Of a DNA stretch of 64,000 nucleotides, positions 26,258 to 36,495 are shown in pieces. A program made the position numbers and the translations under genes. Below the pieces are notes generated by a model. It did not search any database and had not been told where the DNA came from. It was given only the letters and a program-made list of their open reading frames with translations. Position 1 is the first letter of the stretch; the number at the start of each line of letters is the position of its first letter. Source of the DNA: Trichodelitschia bisporula (lineage: Eukaryota); contig ML996697.1 in assembly GCA_010356995.1 (NCBI GenBank), positions 244,153 through 308,152 of the forward strand, given 5' to 3'.

Positions 26258-29055
26258 TCACGATGTCACCCCATCCGTCTCTTCGCCAGCTCCATTACCG
26301 GCCCGCCACCTCCGCTTCCACAGCTTCCCGAAGCCAAACCGACTAGACCTGTTTCCTACCCCGCCAGGACCTCCGCTCGTGCGCCCGGAGGACACGGTCG
26401 AGGAGGGGGGAACGCTAGATCCATCTGTTGGCGACGTCGCACTCTCCAACAATGTCGAGTACTCTTTCTCTGGTACGCCACTCATACCTCCACCGTTCTG
26501 ATGGTGCTGATGACGGCCAAAAGCACTCCCTAGAGACCCGTTGAGCGAAAACGGCGCACGAATATCCGTCTGGGAGCGCGGTGACGGGAGAGAAACATTG
26601 GCCTTAGCGCTAGCAGAACCGTTGGAAGGTGACGTGCGTGGTCGAGATGGCTCATCATCGTCAGTCAGGCCCTTGGGAGACGCGGCGCGAGCGCGCGTTT
26701 TGGACTTGGACTTGGTACGGCGCGATGGTGACGAAGAGCGCAGGCGCGGACCGCATTTCTTGTCACTGCGTTTCTTCCTTTCTGATGTTGAAGGCGTGGG
26801 TGCCTCAATTGTCGGTATGGGGACAGGAGCAACCGGGGCCGGGTCACCTGTAAGCTGCGCGCTGGGACACGTTGTCGTTGCTGTGGTATTTGGCATTGGT
26901 GGTGGTAATTCCCTCTCTGTGGGAAGGTCGACGTGGCTACGCGTTAGCGGACTGGTTACGCCGTCGAAGCACGAGGCGCTTAGCTGCCCGGCGAGAGACT
27001 GCTTATCGGAGTCTTTATTCTCCTCAATCTTGCGCTCCCAAATGGTCTTGTTATTCACAAGCTCGCTCACGCTGAACTGCATCGCCGGTAGTATGTCCGT
27101 GACAGCCTCAAATAGCGGCCGAGCGAAAATGTTAATGAAGCCAATCTGCGACTCGCCCATCTTGACGATATTGTCCCGTACAGGTGGCCCACCGAAGAGC
27201 GTCGTCGGCATGTTAAGCTCGATTTCCATGTTGCCCTGGTTGGAAAACTCGTCGGTGAGGATGCTCGCCCATTGGGCAGCGACGTTGAACTTTCTCGCCT
27301 GCGCACGAATCAGCTTATATCCTGCCAATGTCATCTCAAAAACAACTCACCACATTGCTGATGTCGGCGCACTTGATGAGCAATCCGCAGGCCAGGTCGC
27401 GGTACTCTTCCTGCAGCTTTAAGTTCCACCCGTCCAGCGTATTATTATTATGATGCAGTTTCGTCTGCAAGTTGCCCAAGTCCGCCATGTACTTAAAATG
27501 GAGCCCCATATCCGTCGCCAGAATTGAATTGATCATCAGCTTCCGCATCTGACAATCTTCAAATGCCGCGGGCCAGTAGCGCCGCAAGATCTGCGAGTAG
27601 GCGGCGCAGTGGAACGACTCGAGCACCGACCGGTCATTGTAAAGCTGTGCGAGCGGAGCATTCAGCGCGACGAGAAATGCGTTGTTCACGCCGGGATGGC
27701 CGACATCGTGCCCAACAGCTGAAATGAGCAGCGTCAGTGCATCAACCGGCTTCAACAGTGTGGCGATTGCCGAACAGGGCTGAGCTTGCACCATTACGCT
27801 TCCGGGGTAGTGTGGCAAGATGCCGATCTGGACGAGGAAGAAAAAGGTAGCCTGCAGCACATCGACGACGTGGCGGAAGTTGTGGTAGAACACAAACTCA
27901 TTGTAGGCCTGGCGACTGGCCTGGAGAAAGCGGACAAGGTCATCTGCAACGCCGTCAGTACCACCTCGGGAAGTCGTTCATCCTTGCAGGAAACAAACCT
28001 CTGGGCATCCTCCACTTTTCCAGTGAGGGCATCTGCAGCGCGTGCTCCAGCATGATCAAAGCCGCGTGAAGCAGCTCCTCATCGGTGAAACTATGCGCAG
28101 AAAAGGACCACAAGCCCACAGCGTCCGCAATGGCCTGCTTCCGTTCGATGCGAATTTCGGTGCTGCTGATGTCGACCATCTCCACTGCTTGCTGTGGGTC
28201 ACAGATACCGCTCATCAGATTCGATACCATGGCCTCGCGAAGATATGCATAAGGCTTTGTCTCCTCGACGCCAACCCAAGACAGCTTCCGGTTGCGCTTG
28301 TGAGCCAAAAAATTCGCATCTTCGCGCCCAGCATCCTTAAAGGCCCGGTAGGCGTGCAAGGCCAAGCCCTGGACGTGGTGCGTTGAGAGCGGACTGGTAA
28401 GGACATCTACGGCTCCGGCATCCAAATAGCGCGTTAGCCGCACCGTATCCGAAAGCACCTGCGACCCATGAACGCTGGGGGACGGCAAATTCGGCGACGC
28501 CCATTCCCTTTCGAAGCCGCTAAGGACGACGACTGGAATGATAAGGCGAGATATGCTGCTGAGCTGAATTTCGGAAGATATGTGAGAGAGTAGGCGCATG
28601 CCATAGAGGTCACTGGCATCGAGCGATTCGCTGGTCAATCGCTTCAGCGAGCGAGTGGACGTGGGAGACGGTGTCCGAGATTCACGAGATAGCCGCTTCA
28701 TGCGCTGGTCCTCGTCGTACGGAATATCGATCAGGACGACAGTTGGCGTGTTGGCTTTGGACTCTTGCAGATCCGCAATCTTGGACAGACATGTTCCGCC
28801 AGAGCGACACACATGAACTAGTTTGTGAGTATGGTACAGCATGCTACAGGATCACTGCTCACCTTCATTGAAGATTCCAAGGATCGACTCGATGTTCGAC
28901 TGCACCTCAACAGGCAGATGAGAGGAGTCGAGCTTAAAATACTCAGGTGTATCGCTAGCATCGCTGGCCCGCGTCGCAAGCACGGCCTCTCTCCGCACCA
29001 GCTCGTCCTGCGCGCGGCGATCGATGTAAATTATGTTGCAAGCTCCATGGTCCAT
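26258..29055 (-). CDS. PDE2: High-affinity class I cAMP phosphodiesterase (PdeH/Pde2 type), 3 introns
   Basis: YHNFRHVVDVLQ, HDVGHPGVNN, LESFH, ILATDMGLHF, IKCADISNV, EFSNQG, SQIGFI. Confidence 0.95.
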
Positions 29056-30451
29056 CGTTTATGCCCCAGCCTCCACCCCTCGCGGAGGAGTTGTCCAACG
29101 GCCAGCAGTTTCAGTGCCCAGACGGACAGAAGAGTCGGAGAGTGTTAAAAATGAAGAGAACAAGAATCGATCCAGTTAGTGCGCGCGGCGCAGTCTGGTT
29201 GTATCAATGGCTGAGGAGCTTTCAGAACGGCGAAGAATCAGATCGTACCCCATCTAAAGGCTCAGAGGCGGTTCCAGCAAAGACGGCCCAGATGATGAGA
29301 CAAGATCCGCAAGACACACAGCCGGGGTGTTTCGAGGCCAGCCGCAGTCGATGGAGATCGCAAACTTAGATCCCCAACAATAACGGGCGCGATTTGTCGA
29401 GGGAGAAACAGCGAGTTCCTGGCAATTACGACGTTTGATATGACGCAAGAACCAATGGATCAACGGCGAAGGAAAAAAAAAAAAGGAAATCGCAACGCGC
29501 AGTTTCAAGCGCAAAGCGGGCGGGGATGAAGGGCACGCGATGCGCGCAGGCAGTTCCACCACGTCGCAGGTTGCCTCGTTCGCTTGCGGAAGGAGAAGTG
29601 CGAAGGTTTGCGACAATCCAGAGAAGACGCAGGAAGTTGCGCAGCCCACTTTCCCGTTGACAACTCTTTCTCTTCCTGCGTGTCTCGCCTCAAGGCTGGG
29701 TTCAAAGGGAAGGAATAACAAGCGTCGAGAAGACGGGAGGGGCCGCGTTGCGTGCTGCTGGAACAAAGGCCACCCGGTTCCTGGAGCGGAAGTCTTCTCT
29801 TTGACAATGAGACTTGCAGCGCTCGACGTGGCGAGTGTAGGATGGCGAACAATTGGAGCGCACGCGACACCGAGCACCGACTCCGCGATTTGCTTGCAAT
29901 TGGTCCTTTTAGACTTTTCAGACTCGGAGGATGGATGTGCGCGGCGGGAGAGACGGGGAGTTGAAGAGTGCGACGACGTTGTCTCCGAAACGTGCGGCGG
30001 GAGCAGCGGCAGGGGTCGAGTACGAAAGGGTTTTGTGGTGTTCTTGGGATTGGGAAAGGGCGGAGCGCATGCGCCAGTGCTCGAAGGTGATGAGGCGGGA
30101 CGAGGGGATAGAACTGATGGCGAGTGAGGGTTAGAGGGTGAGAAAGCGCACGGCGATGGGAGGAAGGTTTGGTGCGCAGTGGTGTTTTGGTGTGGAAGGA
30201 GGAAGTCTTGGTGGGCGAGAGAGAGTAGGAGCAGGCCAAAGGTGGTGGTGGTGCGGGCTGCGAAGGACCGAGTAGGTAGACTGCGGACGACTTGCAGGAG
30301 CCCCGGACTCAGGACAGGCCAGCTCGCGGGGCGGGTGCCAATAAGGTAGGTTTTTGGACTAGTGTCAAGAGCGGGAAGGGCGGGTGGGAAACTGGCGATG
30401 CTAGGGAGTTGCAGTTGGTAGCCAGCTAGGGGGTGGGTATATAGTTTGCGG

Positions 30452-30515
30452 AGAGAGAAGAGAGATACGAGAGACAAGAGAGAGTGAGTGTGTGAGACAG
30501 AGAGAGAGAGAGAGA
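30452..30515. repeat. (GA)n/(GT)n microsatellite; CT-rich on the PDE2 sense strand
   Basis: gagagagaagagagatacgagagacaagagagagtgagtgtgtgagacagagagagagagagagat. Confidence 0.75.
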
Positions 30516-33500
30516 TAGGTGCCTTGAGTGGAGGTGGGAGGGGGGGTGCGTGTATTGGTACCTGTACTTGCTGCAGGCGAGGATAAATGGCAGGTACACA
30601 GTACAGCACCAATGTACCTCATCTACCTAGCTGCAGTTGGAGCAGTGGGTGGATTGAAGCTAGGCAGGATATGTGCCATCCAGGAGAGAACTGGTGGGAG
30701 TTGACAATGAAAATATGCTCCGGCCTCTCGAGCTTCATAGTAATCCGCAATTGGGGTGACAATCATCTAAGGCGACTTAGGCTATGAAGCACTCGATCTC
30801 TCTTCACTTCCTTCGTACTGTAGTACGGTAGTCTTGTCCATAGAGCACGGGAAGGGAGGAAAGCCGGGGGAACTCTGGGGGAACTTTTTTGGGGGGAGGG
30901 GGTGATGGGCGTCGCCTGTGGAAGGTGTCAGGCGTGTGCAAGGCCCAAAGAATGAAGCCAGGTGGGTCGCGGGAGGCGGGGGGCGCACTAAGGAGCAGGG
31001 GACGATGCACTATAGCCGGGGTCTTTTTTGGGGGGCCTTTACTTCAGTACTGGGGAGAAACGCACTGGGCCTTTTTGGGGAGCGGAGCTGGGTTCATGAA
31101 GAACTGCTGAGGAAAGATGGCGACAGTACCTCCGTACTTTTTATCTCTTTGAGAATAATCAACTCTATCGCTCCCCTCCTACAGACTCCCGACAGAAAAA
31201 CACTATCCCTTGTTCGTCCCAATGAGAGCCGAAGGGAAGCGCAGAAGAAGAGCTAAACTGCACGACTCGACGAGCCCCAGGTGCGGGGACTTGGCCTGTC
31301 TGGTGGTGACTTGGCGGACATGGACTCCCCTTGAACATTACACTTTTCGGCGTGCACAGACGCCTGTTTCCAGGCGTCTTCTGGAATGCGTCCTTACCAC
31401 TTCGAGAATAGCGTATACTGGATTTCCTTCCTTACGCCGCTCGCTACGCGCGGGAATGGGCGCGCACGCGGGGAATGGACGAAAACAACGAAAAGAAGCT
31501 GCGAAGAAGACGCGGAAGAAGGCGATAGAAGTAGTCCTTGATCCACTTTATATTCCACTCTCCAACCCCTATCTCGCGCCCTATCTCTGCCCTCCCACTT
31601 TGCAGATGTGGAGTTTTGTGTGGAGAAAGGAGAAGAAAACCTACAAGCAAAAAAACCATCCTCAATCGTCATCGGCGCAGTAACTAATCGGCTTTTGAGG
31701 CGCTTTGCTCTCCTCTTGTCTCAAAGTACGTAGTACGGTACACACACGCCGCAATATCTTTTCTTTTTTCTCATTTATCCCATTTATCGCGCGCCTACCG
31801 CGCTCCACTTCCTTCGTGTGGGCGTTCCAATTCGCCTTCTAGACTCGCTTGTAATCACGATACTCATCGGCTTTGCCGACGGGCCACCATAACAACAGCA
31901 GCGCACCCCGCGAGTCAGCTAACGTTGTTGGCGCAAAAGCACAAGGCTTCCCGAGCGAAACCACCGTGGTGGCAGCCAGTGCAGAGCCCGTAAATGCGCC
32001 TGTTGAACGCCTGTGTACGCGACGCGTCAGTGAAGGGAAGGGCAGCAGCAGATTGTGAGTATTAAGACACCGTTCAGCGCTTGATCTGAGCATCAGCGAT
32101 CGGATATGGCGCAAGGCAGCAGGCAAGCATCTCCGGCTGTTTTACCGACTCATTCCTCTCTCTTTCATCAATATCGCCCTGTCCACGCGCAATGCTCGAC
32201 CAGCCCCGCAGGAGCGCGCGATTCTCTCTCCGCCCTGTGCCCCGCGGTGTTTAATCTCCACCAGACAAACGTCAGCGATTTGCGCTGCTCCTTACTTCGT
32301 ATGTTTAGTTCTAATCCCTGGATCCTTCGAGGCAGCATGACCCATGATCCTATGAAAAAGCTGCGTAAATTAATATGGTCGCGGGCCTATGAACACGATG
32401 GCTAGTTTGCCAGTCTCTGCCCGGATCGTCTTCTCCCTTCTCCCTTGTCCCTTACCTCACTCCCACCGGGCCTGAGAGGATTCCATTCCAGTACCTTCCC
32501 CGCCGCCCACTCGCATTCCCTCTCCCCAAACCGCCCCTTGGCCCTACCGTAGAGGCGGCCGCGTGGAGGGGCTCCAAGACAGATCGCAACGGTCTTCCCC
32601 ACCCCCTCCCTCCACCATCGACGCCCATCGGCCAAGGCGCAAAAGCATGGTATTGTCACGGCATCAGATTAAAAAAGCAAGCCTCTCCATCTATCTATCT
32701 CCCTCTCCCCCATATTCACTAGTAGCGCCTGCCAAACCAGCCAGACAAAACATCCAGATCTCAGAGCCAGTCCAACATCCCCACCATCACCATCACCCGC
32801 ACCCTTTTCCCCACCCCCCAACATGCCGCATCCAGCAACCTTCCAGAATTCGCCCAATCCCTGCTCACAACGTGCACTTGCAGTCCGTCTCACAGGCCAC
32901 AGCTCCGCTCCACATGCAGACGACCACACCCGCCCGGCTCCGCGCCGACCTCTTCAAGAAGCGAACGTGCTACCTTGCAATGCAGGCGAGCTGCAATACA
33001 CCGCCGCCAATGCTGCGCTCCTTCGGCTCCTGCTGCCCTCGATACAACGATGTGCCCCGCCGGACATGGACCCCGCGGTGGGCAAAGCTCGGCGTGGCGC
33101 GAGTTGACCTCGAGTCCTAGACACGACATATCCCAAGTACATGGTACAACTGCGACTTTGCGGAGTGCTGCCGTTGTACCTCCCGGCTTTGTCGCAGCTG
33201 TCTTACACCTCCGCACATTCCCGCCTCTAGCCATCGCAATCATGGTGGCATTCCTTTGCACGATACTCCAACCTCATGTTTCACGCACGTAGGCCGTGCC
33301 CGGCCTTGCCATACGAACAGCGGGGCAAGAATTGGTGCCCCCCCTACTTTGCGTCCTGCTGTGCGCGGGCTATGGTTAGTGACCGAGTGGAACAACCAGC
33401 GGCCGTTTGGCCGCAGCTGGAACATTAGTCTAAGGCTGTGAAAGAGCGACGGCTGCGGAAGGCGTTGGAATACTGAGGTCTTAGGTTTGAAACGGAAGCC

Positions 33501-34299
33501 TGCGTCGGAAGATGATGATCAAGGAGTTGGAGGTTGGATGAATAAGCTGGACGGTGAGATATGATGTAACTCTGTTCGTCCACTACAGTACGTATCCAGC
33601 TAATAGCGCCGTTAGGGCGTTTGCTCCGGAGTATGTCATATGCTGGCCTTTCCTCACATCCAAATGATTGATTTGTAACCTGTGACGTCTTGCTCCTATG
33701 GCTTGCCGTTGACCAAGTCTTCCGGTTGCCAAAACTACCATCGCCCATTACCGGATCTCTGCGCCTGATCCGTCAACATGCTATTCTGGCACAGAAGTGT
33801 GTTGGCATCAATGCTTCCTAAGGGCTAGCTGGCACAATGCCACCTAAGTTAAGCTCGCCAAACGCTTTTTCGCCCGCATCGATGGAACCGAGTTTAGAAA
33901 CAGAACATGACACCCACTGCCTAAGGGTTAGCTGGATCAATGCAGGATAGCAATTGAGCAACGCAGGTATTCATCAGTCCCTTTTAACCTAGATATGTGC
34001 TCACTGACACCCCAGTTTCACACCGTCCTCGCTGGTTCTCCACACCGAGCTCTCCCTGGCAGTTACCGGTCGCTGCGAGAAACAGCCAGATCATGGCACG
34101 GTAAAACAGTGAATGAGACTCCGCAAAGAAAGTTAGTCTCTTTAACGCAGAGGTACTATAAGGCCTCATATTCCCGGTGGACCATGGCCCCCCGATCACC
34201 AGCAAAACTCATTTTCGAAAATGGTTTCCCCATTCGAAACCCGCGGATACGAAGAGTCCGAACCAGACGGTATGGGCATCTATCCACGTCTCGCATCGT

Positions 34300-35079
34300 A
34301 TGGCTAACAGTTACCCAGAGGAGTCGAGGGAAATCGACTCTGGCGACTCAGACTCAGACTCAGTGAGAGACTCAGGCTCAGACTCAGCGAGATACTCAAA
34401 CTCAGACTCAGTGAGATACTCGGACTCGGACGAAGTGAGATACTCAGACTTGGACGAAGTGAGATACTCAGACTCGGACGAGCCCACGCGCTGTAATTTA
34501 CGCCGCACTTCGCGCCGTACTTCGCCAGCCCGCACTTCACGCGCTGCTCAGTCCTTGATGCCCGGGCTTAAAGCCACCAACAACGCGTACTACTCTCAGA
34601 AGTTCAAGAGTAGGGTGAAAGCTCATTGCACTCCTTGTGTGTAGCTGCAGGGAGTGCGATTGGTTGCTCACCCTACTCTTATCTCGCCCTCGATCTGTGA
34701 CTAACACCTTCATAGGAAGGCCGCCGAAGAGTCGGTTCTGCGGTCCGCCGGAGACCAGCCGTTCGTTTACTGGAACCCCCCTGACCGGCCCTGAGCAGTA
34801 GATGCGGCTTGCGTCAGCGCCGAAGCTCTCGCGAAGGTGACCCTTGATGCCAAGCGGCCTATGGCTCTGATAACAGATTTCGAGCGCGCTCGTGTTCTCG
34901 AGCTTCGTGCCCAGCAAATCGCGGATGGGGCTCGGGTCTTCGTTAGGGTTAACGGCTTGACAGATCCTCTCCAGATTTCCAGAATAGAAATGCTCGAGGG
35001 GAAGATTCCCGGGATGATTCGAAGCTACAAGTCGAACGGGTCGTACGAGGAGTGGCCTTGTGCAATGCATATATTTTGA
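34300..35079 (+). CDS. Divergent RNA polymerase subunit Rpb6 (RPABC2)-like protein; proposed exons 34300-34609, 34716-34760, 34799-35079
   Basis: C-terminal ITDFERARVLELRAQQIADGARVFVRVNGLTDPLQISRIEMLEGKIPGMIRSYKSNGSYEEW aligns colinearly with the Rpb6 consensus ([41 protein letters not shown]...KIPL..RRYLPDG..EDW). The upstream exons are less certain. Confidence 0.75.
34342..34482 (+). repeat. Coding tandem repeat of 24-nt units (GTGAGATACTCAGACTCGGACGAA, VRYSDSDE) plus GACTCA hexamers
   Basis: About 5 degenerate copies are visible directly in the sequence. Confidence 0.85.
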
Positions 35080-35510
35080 GGCCTTCATTGACCTACCTCA
35101 TATCCATTTGCCGCGTCCATTCAGTGAGGCGCATGGGGCGCTTGATACCTAACCTGGTGGCCATAGGCAAAGGGCTTTTCAAAGCATATAGGTGAATTGC
35201 AGTTCTGACTTCGGATCTCCTCGGTCGCCAATCTTTCAGGATACTTACGCAAATACGAAGGCGGTTCTTATTCTCATGGTTTGCTCCGATTCGTGTGTAT
35301 TCGTTCTCGTAGTGGAGCCTTCAACTGTACCAGCGTGATCTATTCGCTAGTTCTAATCCCGGAGCCGAGCTACTACGTAGTACGGTATCGAGCAGCTACC
35401 CCGCCGTGGCCGCTGACGCAACTCCCCTTGGCCTTTCCTTGTCTACCCCGCCGACCCCGCCGACCACAACAGTCTCAACCCTCGATCCCTAATTATATTC
35501 AGAACCCAGA

Positions 35511-36495
35511 ATGATTTTCGAAACGGTTGCCACTATCGCTTCTTTTGGGGGCAGGCTCCTCAAACTCAAGCATGCCGCCAAGTCGACGAACTGTGAGATG
35601 GCCTTGAATCTCTACCTCCCGCCGCAGGCTTCGAATGGCAAAGTGCCCGTACTCTTCTATCTCTCAGGCCTGACCTGCTCCGGCGACAATTGCGCCGAGA
35701 AAGGCTTTTTCCAACACAGCGCAAGCCGGGAAGGAATTGCCGTTGTGTACCCGGACACGAGCCCAAGTACGAAGTCGTCCCAGTACACATAGTCTGTCTG
35801 ACGGATCAGGGGGCTTGCAGATTGAGGGCGAGGACGATTCCTGGGACTTTGGCACCGGTGCCGGTTTCTATGTCAATGCCACAAAAGAGCCGTGGACTAA
35901 GGGCTACAACATGTACTCGTACATTGTCGACGAGCTTCCCGAGGCCCTGTTCTCGGAATTCCCTGTTCTCGATTCAAGCAGTTTAGGCATTACTGGCCAC
36001 AGTATGGGTGGTCATGGTGCACTAACCATTGTATGGACATCTAAACACCGAAGCTCGCGCTAACGCCCAAGTACCTCAAAAACCCTGACAAGTACAAGTC
36101 GTGCTCTGCCTTTGCCCCTATTTGCAACCCGATAAACTGCGCGTGGGGCCAGAAGGCGTTCAAGGGATACTTTGGCGAGGACCAGCAGGACAAGTGGAAG
36201 GAACATGATGCAACTGAGCTCGTGAAGAATTTCGGCAGACCTCTGGCGCTTCTCATCGATGTGGTACGTATCCACACTCCCCTGCACGGTCTATGGCTGA
36301 AGTTCAAAGGGAACTGGCGACAACTTTTACAAGCAGGGACAGTTACTGCCAGAGAACTTCGTCAAGGCAGCTGAAGAGGCTACCCACCTGAGCGGCGTGA
36401 CATTGCGCATGCAGCCCGACTACGACCACAGTTACTACTTCATCTCTACTTTTGCGGACGATCATGTCAAGTGGGCGGCAAAGTATTTGCTATAG
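35511..36495 (+). CDS. S-formylglutathione hydrolase (esterase D), 3 introns
   Basis: [56 protein letters not shown]. Stop TAG at 36493-36495. Confidence 0.95.

Follow-up and report, generated by a model that had tools for sequence, protein, structure and literature searches.

The window analysed here is a stretch of 64,000 nucleotides from Trichodelitschia bisporula, a dung fungus of the Dothideomycetes (order Phaeotrichales), and all positions are counted from its first letter. On its forward strand lies a split gene, the last exon of which carries a frame resembling the RNA polymerase subunit Rpb6 at 34795..35079 (+); this frame is open for 94 codons, has its stop at 35077–35079 and begins directly behind an in-frame TGA. 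By its look, the window from 7833 to 63957 is an ordinary fungal chromosome, with exons of chitin synthase, a GT2 glycosyltransferase, a cyclic-nucleotide phosphodiesterase, exportin-T, acyl-CoA oxidase, a Zn2Cys6 factor, a neutral ceramidase, an AAA ATPase and a SNF1-type kinase. No obvious gene was seen in the stretch 29000–34200. At 35491–36400 (+) lies a neighbouring PF00756 esterase, which we take to resemble esterase D / S-formylglutathione hydrolase and which has contig-confirmed introns of 43, 41 and 46 nt.

The gene model was built on assembled contigs from two public runs of one sample (X1 and X2), the RNA nature of which is a guess. These contigs span seven GT..AG gaps in 3 kb, and we took them as spliced RNA because three of the joints coincide with the short introns of the neighbouring esterase gene. 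Assembled contigs drop rare isoforms and do not show transcript starts, and their depth (42.9 at the locus versus 1504 at the neighbouring gene) is unsuitable as a measure of expression. One X1 contig of 2189 nt defines introns at 33967–34015, 34270–34318 and 34587–34715 and then covers 34716–35207 in one piece, identical to the genome. The X2 contigs contain the joints of the first two introns, end at 34587 and restart at 34716; the X2 contig over 34716–35041 likewise shows 0 differences from the genome. Together with translation and searches for repeats and open reading frames, they give the following features:

33400..34220 (+), spliced leader in the same RNA contig, containing the intron 33967–34015 (joint 33963>34013)
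33616–33630 (+), micro-exon of ~15 nt in the leader, between two introns of ~50 nt (joint 33566>33683)
34221..34269 (+), first coding exon with the probable ancestral start ATG, MVSPFETRGYEESEPD (contigs and translation; AUG context aaaATGg)
34270..34318 (+), intron of 49 nt, GT..AG (joint 34268>34318, cut +1, in X1 and X2)
34319..34586 (+), exon encoding an acidic Ser/Asp-rich tail and then a basic stretch (contigs and translation)
34346..34479 (+), in-frame tandem repeat with a unit of 24 nt (8 codons), 5.6 copies, 87% matches (repeat search)
34587..34715 (+), intron of 129 nt, GT..AG (joint 34586>34716 in X1)
34716..34791 (+), last-exon codons ahead of the stop (..AKAAEESVLRSAGDQPFVYWNPPDRP), in the frame of the Rpb6 core (translation)
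34792..34794 (+), in-frame TGA between the 131-aa tail ORF and the core, kept in the X1 and X2 contigs
34861..35079 (+), ORF of 72 aa from an internal ATG, equal to the public database form P0001 (ORF and database match)
35080..35207 (+), 3′ untranslated stretch, ending where the RNA contig ends (contigs)

When the exons are joined as observed, an ORF of 131 codons (MVSPFETRGYEESEPD-EESREIDSGDSDSDS...) runs from the ATG at 34221 to the TGA at 34792–34794, and the 94 Rpb6 codons follow directly in the same frame. A preliminary description of this DNA had proposed a start ATG at 34300 and two introns, 34610–34715 and 34761–34798, the second of which would have spliced out the TGA. For the first intron it had the correct acceptor and the wrong donor; the second, of 38 nt, does not appear in the contigs, and its removal in combination with the actual donor at 34587 would shift the frame. 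Because this intron is missing from the contigs, the TGA is retained in the RNA. The likely start lies instead at 34221, in an upstream exon. The acidic repeat exon of the same description is genuine, as its 24-nt tandem array attests. A minor productive splice form or a short transcript that yields the core is possible. In NCBI and UniRef the locus is represented by P0001, a 72-aa protein that forms a cluster of one.

The leader is long and complex. Its RNA contig reaches ~710 nt further upstream than 33400, so that this plus-strand contig has a leader, itself spliced, that covers window positions 32690–34220 and is at least 1.5 kb long. At the micro-exon, the contigs replace 116 nt within 33566–33683 by 14 letters that equal window positions 33617–33630; the second of the two flanking introns begins with GTATGT at 33631 and ends in ..CTG, not AG, at 33682. 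The single transcript form observed has at least 16 AUGs ahead of 34221 and a further 3 ahead of the internal AUG at 34861. One of the upstream AUGs, at 34184, stands in a good context (accATGg) and opens an out-of-frame ORF of 87 aa (34184–34496) that translates the 24-nt repeat as an Arg/Leu-rich peptide. We rejected the idea that the leader is a mosaic of gene fragments: no Pfam family was found in its 12 ORFs, and the sole repeat is the 24-nt array.

The Rpb6-like domain at 34795–35079 (+) is genuine. Among PDB chains searched with phmmer, the best match of the core was 5x4z_F (E = 8.5 × 10−15; query 21–90 against chain residues 80–149, ungapped), and 3h0g_F (2.3 × 10−14) and 1i3q_F (5.9 × 10−14) also matched. 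About 14 eukaryotic Rpb6 sequences in the PDB match at E ≤ 3 × 10−12; identity to the solved Rpb6 chains is 45–50% without gaps, and archaeal Rpo6/K, at ~1 × 10−4, falls behind eukaryotic Rpb6/RPABC2. The number of library proteins that match the query at E ≤ 1 × 10−3 is 757. The blocks described earlier as diagnostic (FERARVL, RA.QI, TDPLQI, KIP and GSYEEW) do appear in the phmmer alignments, colinear and free of indels, as do the odd replacements of LGTRALQ by LELRAQQ and of RRYLPDG by RSYKSNG. Against PF01192 (RNA_pol_Rpb6), the 94-aa frame scores 24.0 bits and the 72-aa ORF 24.8 bits; the core thus falls under the gathering score of 26 bits, and canonical Pezizomycotina Rpb6 proteins (n = 3) score about twice as high, at 46.6–51.4 bits.

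Structure prediction agrees with this assignment. The AlphaFold2 model of the core has a mean pLDDT of 81.4, with values above 90 at residues ~30–90 and a confidently modelled core at 28–88, all of which is spanned by the 72-aa ORF. Its secondary structure (helices at 28–43 and 58–67, strands at 74–78 and 84–88) consists of two helices and a β-hairpin, which is the fold of the Rpb6 assembly domain. The top 39 Foldseek matches of the model were all Rpb6 chains (chain F of Pol I, II and III), with TMq ~0.7 and an r.m.s.d. of 0.8–1.1 over 69 columns (0.8 for 5x4z_F). We acknowledge that this fold match is expected and is no independent evidence, because the input alignment of 61 rows was composed of canonical Rpb6 proteins. 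The model that the ESM Atlas holds for the 72-aa form has a TM of 0.71 to an Ascomycota Rpb6 cluster. At the 15 columns conserved at ≥90% in the 61-sequence alignment, the core keeps 8 residues (T27, R33, Q41, V50, D57, I61, R76 and W87) and replaces 7 (K28D, G36E, A62S, L66M, R77S, P80S and D86E), and G36E, A62S, R77S and P80S hit columns that are 97–100% conserved. Either a new function or relaxed constraint could account for the seven replaced near-invariant residues.

We compared the core with a consensus built from five Pezizomycotina Rpb6 sequences of named source, P0019 (Trizodia sp.), P0029 (Sclerophora amabilis), P0032 (Ascosphaera atra), P0025 (Chrysothrix sp.) and P0114 (Teloschistes), and took the variability of each column from 149 library homologs. 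The core differs from the consensus at 41 of 74 sites and is identical at 33, and in a tree of 150 rows and 74 columns its terminal branch is 1.18 changes per site long, against a median of 0.15 (a ratio of ~8); the earlier wording, ‘highly divergent Rpb6-like’, is therefore apt. The changed sites concentrate at variable columns (P = 2.6 × 10−4, Mann–Whitney test, 149 homologs; P = 5 × 10−4 on the 60 sites where the five consensus proteins agree), and columns conserved at ≥95% are changed less often (4 of 15) than the others (37 of 59; P = 0.019, Fisher test). Repeat-induced point mutation (RIP) does not explain the divergence, because 11 of the 32 securely replaced sites require 2–3 nucleotide changes and only 6 of the 21 one-step replacements are G>A or C>T. 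Taken by itself, an open core frame is weak evidence of constraint, because 11% of neutral, substitution-only simulations run to 45% identity kept the 94 codons open; it is the site pattern and the absence of indels that argue for past constraint.

The same evidence bears on the history of the copy. Because its changes avoid conserved columns, its core is free of indels and only one internal stop is present, the copy was probably protein-coding through most of its long divergence. The observations do not match neutral evolution since duplication (P = 2.6 × 10−4 for the site pattern; no indel in the core; 1 internal stop in 226 codons), and the locus does not appear to be a fresh copy that has decayed neutrally from duplication onward. 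Any neutral phase would have to be recent, because replacements avoid conserved columns, indels are absent and there is a single stop.

Tail and core seem once to have formed a single frame. In the spliced region, frame 0 contains 2 stops in 227 codons and the other frames contain 12 and 6; the probability of at most 1 stop in 226 random codons of the same composition is 0.0012. Residues ahead of the internal Met (K14, V15, D18 and K20) still resemble canonical Rpb6, and an N-terminal Y-E..EP motif aligns with the N termini of canonical Pezizomycotina Rpb6. The first 70 residues of the tail are acidic (23 D+E versus 7 K+R), and the tail–linker–core layout is that of fungal Rpb6, down to a Cys two residues past the conserved Trp and an equal C-terminal length. 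Given this upstream similarity, the shared layout and the low stop count, we conclude that the ancestral full-length gene probably had ~226 codons and is now broken by a single stop. Canonical Pezizomycotina RPB6 / RPABC2 (yeast Rpo26) has the same order of parts, the same fold and the same blocks (ERARVL, RA.QI, TDPLQI, KIP and GSYE.W); the locus differs from it in a tail rebuilt from the 24-nt repeat and in a frame interrupted by a TGA in the RNA. An uninterrupted tail-plus-core polypeptide, as in Rpb6, is thus not encoded, with the TGA at 34792 present both in the genome and in the RNA contigs.

Searches for an ortholog returned little besides the product of the locus itself. This product was the only match among the 4 candidates of a word-indexed search at similar lengths; in a longer-length class, 1 of 661 candidates matched (P0006, unrelated, 46%), and an exhaustive search of representatives gave 757 hits with nothing above 55% identity except the own product. 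A metagenome scan found 70 loci, all at 27–40% identity. These metagenome Rpb6-like loci (L001–L070), many of them from lake samples according to their record names, may be of protist or giant-virus origin. Ten further long-branch hits came from metagenomes or protists, with no named fungus among them. The best single hit besides the own product was a red-algal RPABC2 (P0002, 50% identity). Such an absence of orthologs says little about how old or how widespread the gene is, because the nearest database relative of the ceramidase in the window is itself only 68% identical. The locus is very likely an RPB6 paralog, and we infer that a canonical RPB6 lies elsewhere in the genome.

The explanation that we favour, with roughly even confidence, is that the locus is a long-lived RPB6 paralog that was recently interrupted by a stop and is still transcribed: a disabled and dispensable gene at the start of pseudogenization. 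It would have arisen as a whole-gene, intron-bearing duplicate of RPB6 (RPABC2) that included the acidic tail as well as the core assembly domain; this copy would then have diverged very fast, yet would have remained protein-coding for most of its history in this fungal lineage. In the sequenced strain, a single TGA would now split the ancestral 226-codon frame between tail and core, and the locus, still transcribed and correctly spliced, would produce a message that mainly yields at most the 131-aa tail peptide and very little core. The disabling lesion of a duplicated pseudogene is present in genome and RNA alike, as one in-frame TGA ahead of the conserved core. A disabled duplicate is likelier than a working specialized subunit because the message keeps the stop between tail and core, and the decay looks recent because the substitution pattern reflects long-term constraint; the stop at 34792 is accordingly placed by us late in this history, as a probably recent change. 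The preliminary description had offered three options, a polymerase- or stage-specific subunit, a dominant-negative regulator and a decaying duplicate; the last fits best, provided that the decay is recent, and a working spliced subunit loses its footing with the predicted introns, which are absent from the contigs. Transcribed duplicated pseudogenes provide a parallel, in that a homolog of a functional gene carries a single disabling stop and is still transcribed and spliced; the locus differs from them in a very large divergence from its parent family, patterned by constraint.

The main competitor to a disabled duplicate is a working, lineage-specific Rpb6 variant, which we regard as possible and rather unlikely. 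Its core would be made from the AUG at 34861 (72 aa), from a shorter transcript or by low-level UGA readthrough (226 aa), and it would either replace Rpb6 as an alternative subunit or compete for the site that Rpb6 occupies on the largest polymerase subunits. Long-term constraint on key family residues speaks for such a variant, as do the two halves open in one frame, the coverage of the confidently modelled residues 28–88 by the 72-aa ORF, and transcription and splicing of the locus. GC3 is 0.585 in the core and 0.656 in the tail, against a GC content of 0.49–0.52 in flanking non-coding sequence, and two open halves with GC3 above the flanks also fit a gene still in use.

The difficulty for a working variant lies in the translation of its core. 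Known leaky stop motifs are UGA-CUA and stop-CAA-UUA, and the context here, UGA-GCA-GUA, is without them; a 90-nt segment that spans the stop and the sequence behind it folds with z = −0.95, and 34 of 200 shuffled sequences fold equally well. A motif check and the 90-nt fold thus detected neither a leaky context nor a stimulatory 3′ structure at the TGA at 34792. The stop is kept in the RNA contigs, and the single transcript form observed has at least 19 AUGs ahead of the one at 34861. We infer that core translation is poor, because at least 16 + 3 upstream AUGs are combined with the lack of a leaky stop context and of a downstream structure. The replacement of the family-invariant R77, P80 and G36 and the failure of database and metagenome searches to find an ortholog also count against a working product. 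A more specific version, in which a long-kept and strongly remodelled Rpb6 is still made, either as a tail-less core of 72–94 aa (through internal initiation or a short transcript) or as a 226-aa UGA-readthrough protein, and serves as a condition-specific subunit or as a decoy for the Rpb6 docking site on Rpb1/Rpa190/Rpc160, seems unlikely to us.

Precedents for a working variant exist. RPB6z of Trypanosoma brucei is a paralog, specific to Pol I, of a subunit that the polymerases normally share (PMC8311968); as there, the locus is very probably a divergent second Rpb6-type gene where the subunit is usually single-copy and shared. RPB6z, however, is an intact gene with a product found biochemically in Pol I, whereas the frame of our locus is broken and its product is not known to associate with a polymerase. 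Plants also have isoforms of subunit 6, described for olive in PMC8721170, and the plant NRPB6A of Pol II/IV/V (PDB 7eu0_F) was among the phmmer matches. Like the locus, these are duplicated genes for a shared subunit; unlike it, they are intact and near canonical, and 7eu0_F matches the query no better than do the yeast chains.

An alternative that we consider improbable is that only the 131-aa acidic/basic tail protein, or else the RNA as spliced, is functional and that the core is a relic in the 3′ UTR. The tail frame is open between 34221 and the TGA at 34792, its GC3 (0.656) lies within the range of the neighbouring genes (0.625–0.745), its AUG context is good and its in-frame 24-nt repeat has expanded. 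The core past the stop, however, is open for 94 codons and has kept conserved residues, as a long-abandoned relic would not; the out-of-frame AUG at 34184, in a good context, and 15 other upstream AUGs precede the start, and the tail belongs to no recognizable Pfam family.

Horizontal acquisition from a giant virus or a distant eukaryote is highly improbable. The placement of the locus in the 150-row tree is unsupported, with a long-branch join to P0130; the best single hit is the red-algal P0002, and the feature search of the Atlas ranks viral and archaeal clusters first. The AU test nevertheless kept a grouping with the five Pezizomycotina sequences (p = 0.365), a result that neither rejects nor proves such an origin, and the N-terminal motif, the Cys after the Trp and the C-terminal length are shared with fungal proteins. 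Viral Rpb6 proteins (African swine fever virus, ASFV, C147L; PDB 8q3b_F and 8xx4_E) are similarly short and divergent with an Rpb6 fold, but they match at only E ~5 × 10−3 to 1 × 10−2 and with 25% identity in Foldseek (C147L at E ~5 × 10−3), and the metagenome loci reach only 27–40%; the locus is a spliced fungal nuclear gene, with three short introns sized like those of its neighbour. That it is instead the sole RPB6 of this fungus, a fast-evolving housekeeping subunit, is scarcely credible: no second Rpb6-like copy was found in the 64-kb window, the only stretch searched (next tblastn matches at E ≥ 0.075), but an in-frame stop precedes the core in the RNA, 7 of the 15 near-invariant residues are changed, the PF01192 score is half that of canonical fungal proteins, another protein of the contig diverges from its relatives to an ordinary degree (68%), and common subunits are strongly conserved across eukaryotes (PMC1540719).

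The locus is of interest for both the annotation and the evolution of shared polymerase subunits. The public 72-aa model and the earlier two-intron model both conceal the in-frame stop, which is a warning for annotation. The five shared subunits are mostly single-copy and strongly conserved (PMC1540719), and a fungal RPB6 duplicate with more than half of its core changed is for this reason uncommon. Among the literature matches listed, titles and abstract openings contained no fungal RPB6 paralog. As a duplicate that has kept the key residues of its family, the locus reveals which Rpb6 positions tolerate change. If the core is no longer made, the locus is a clear example of a transcribed and correctly spliced gene just after its inactivation. 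Should production of the core continue, the locus would be a rare fungal case of subunit specialization or of interference with polymerase assembly, and the former would be the first RPB6z-like specialization reported in fungi.
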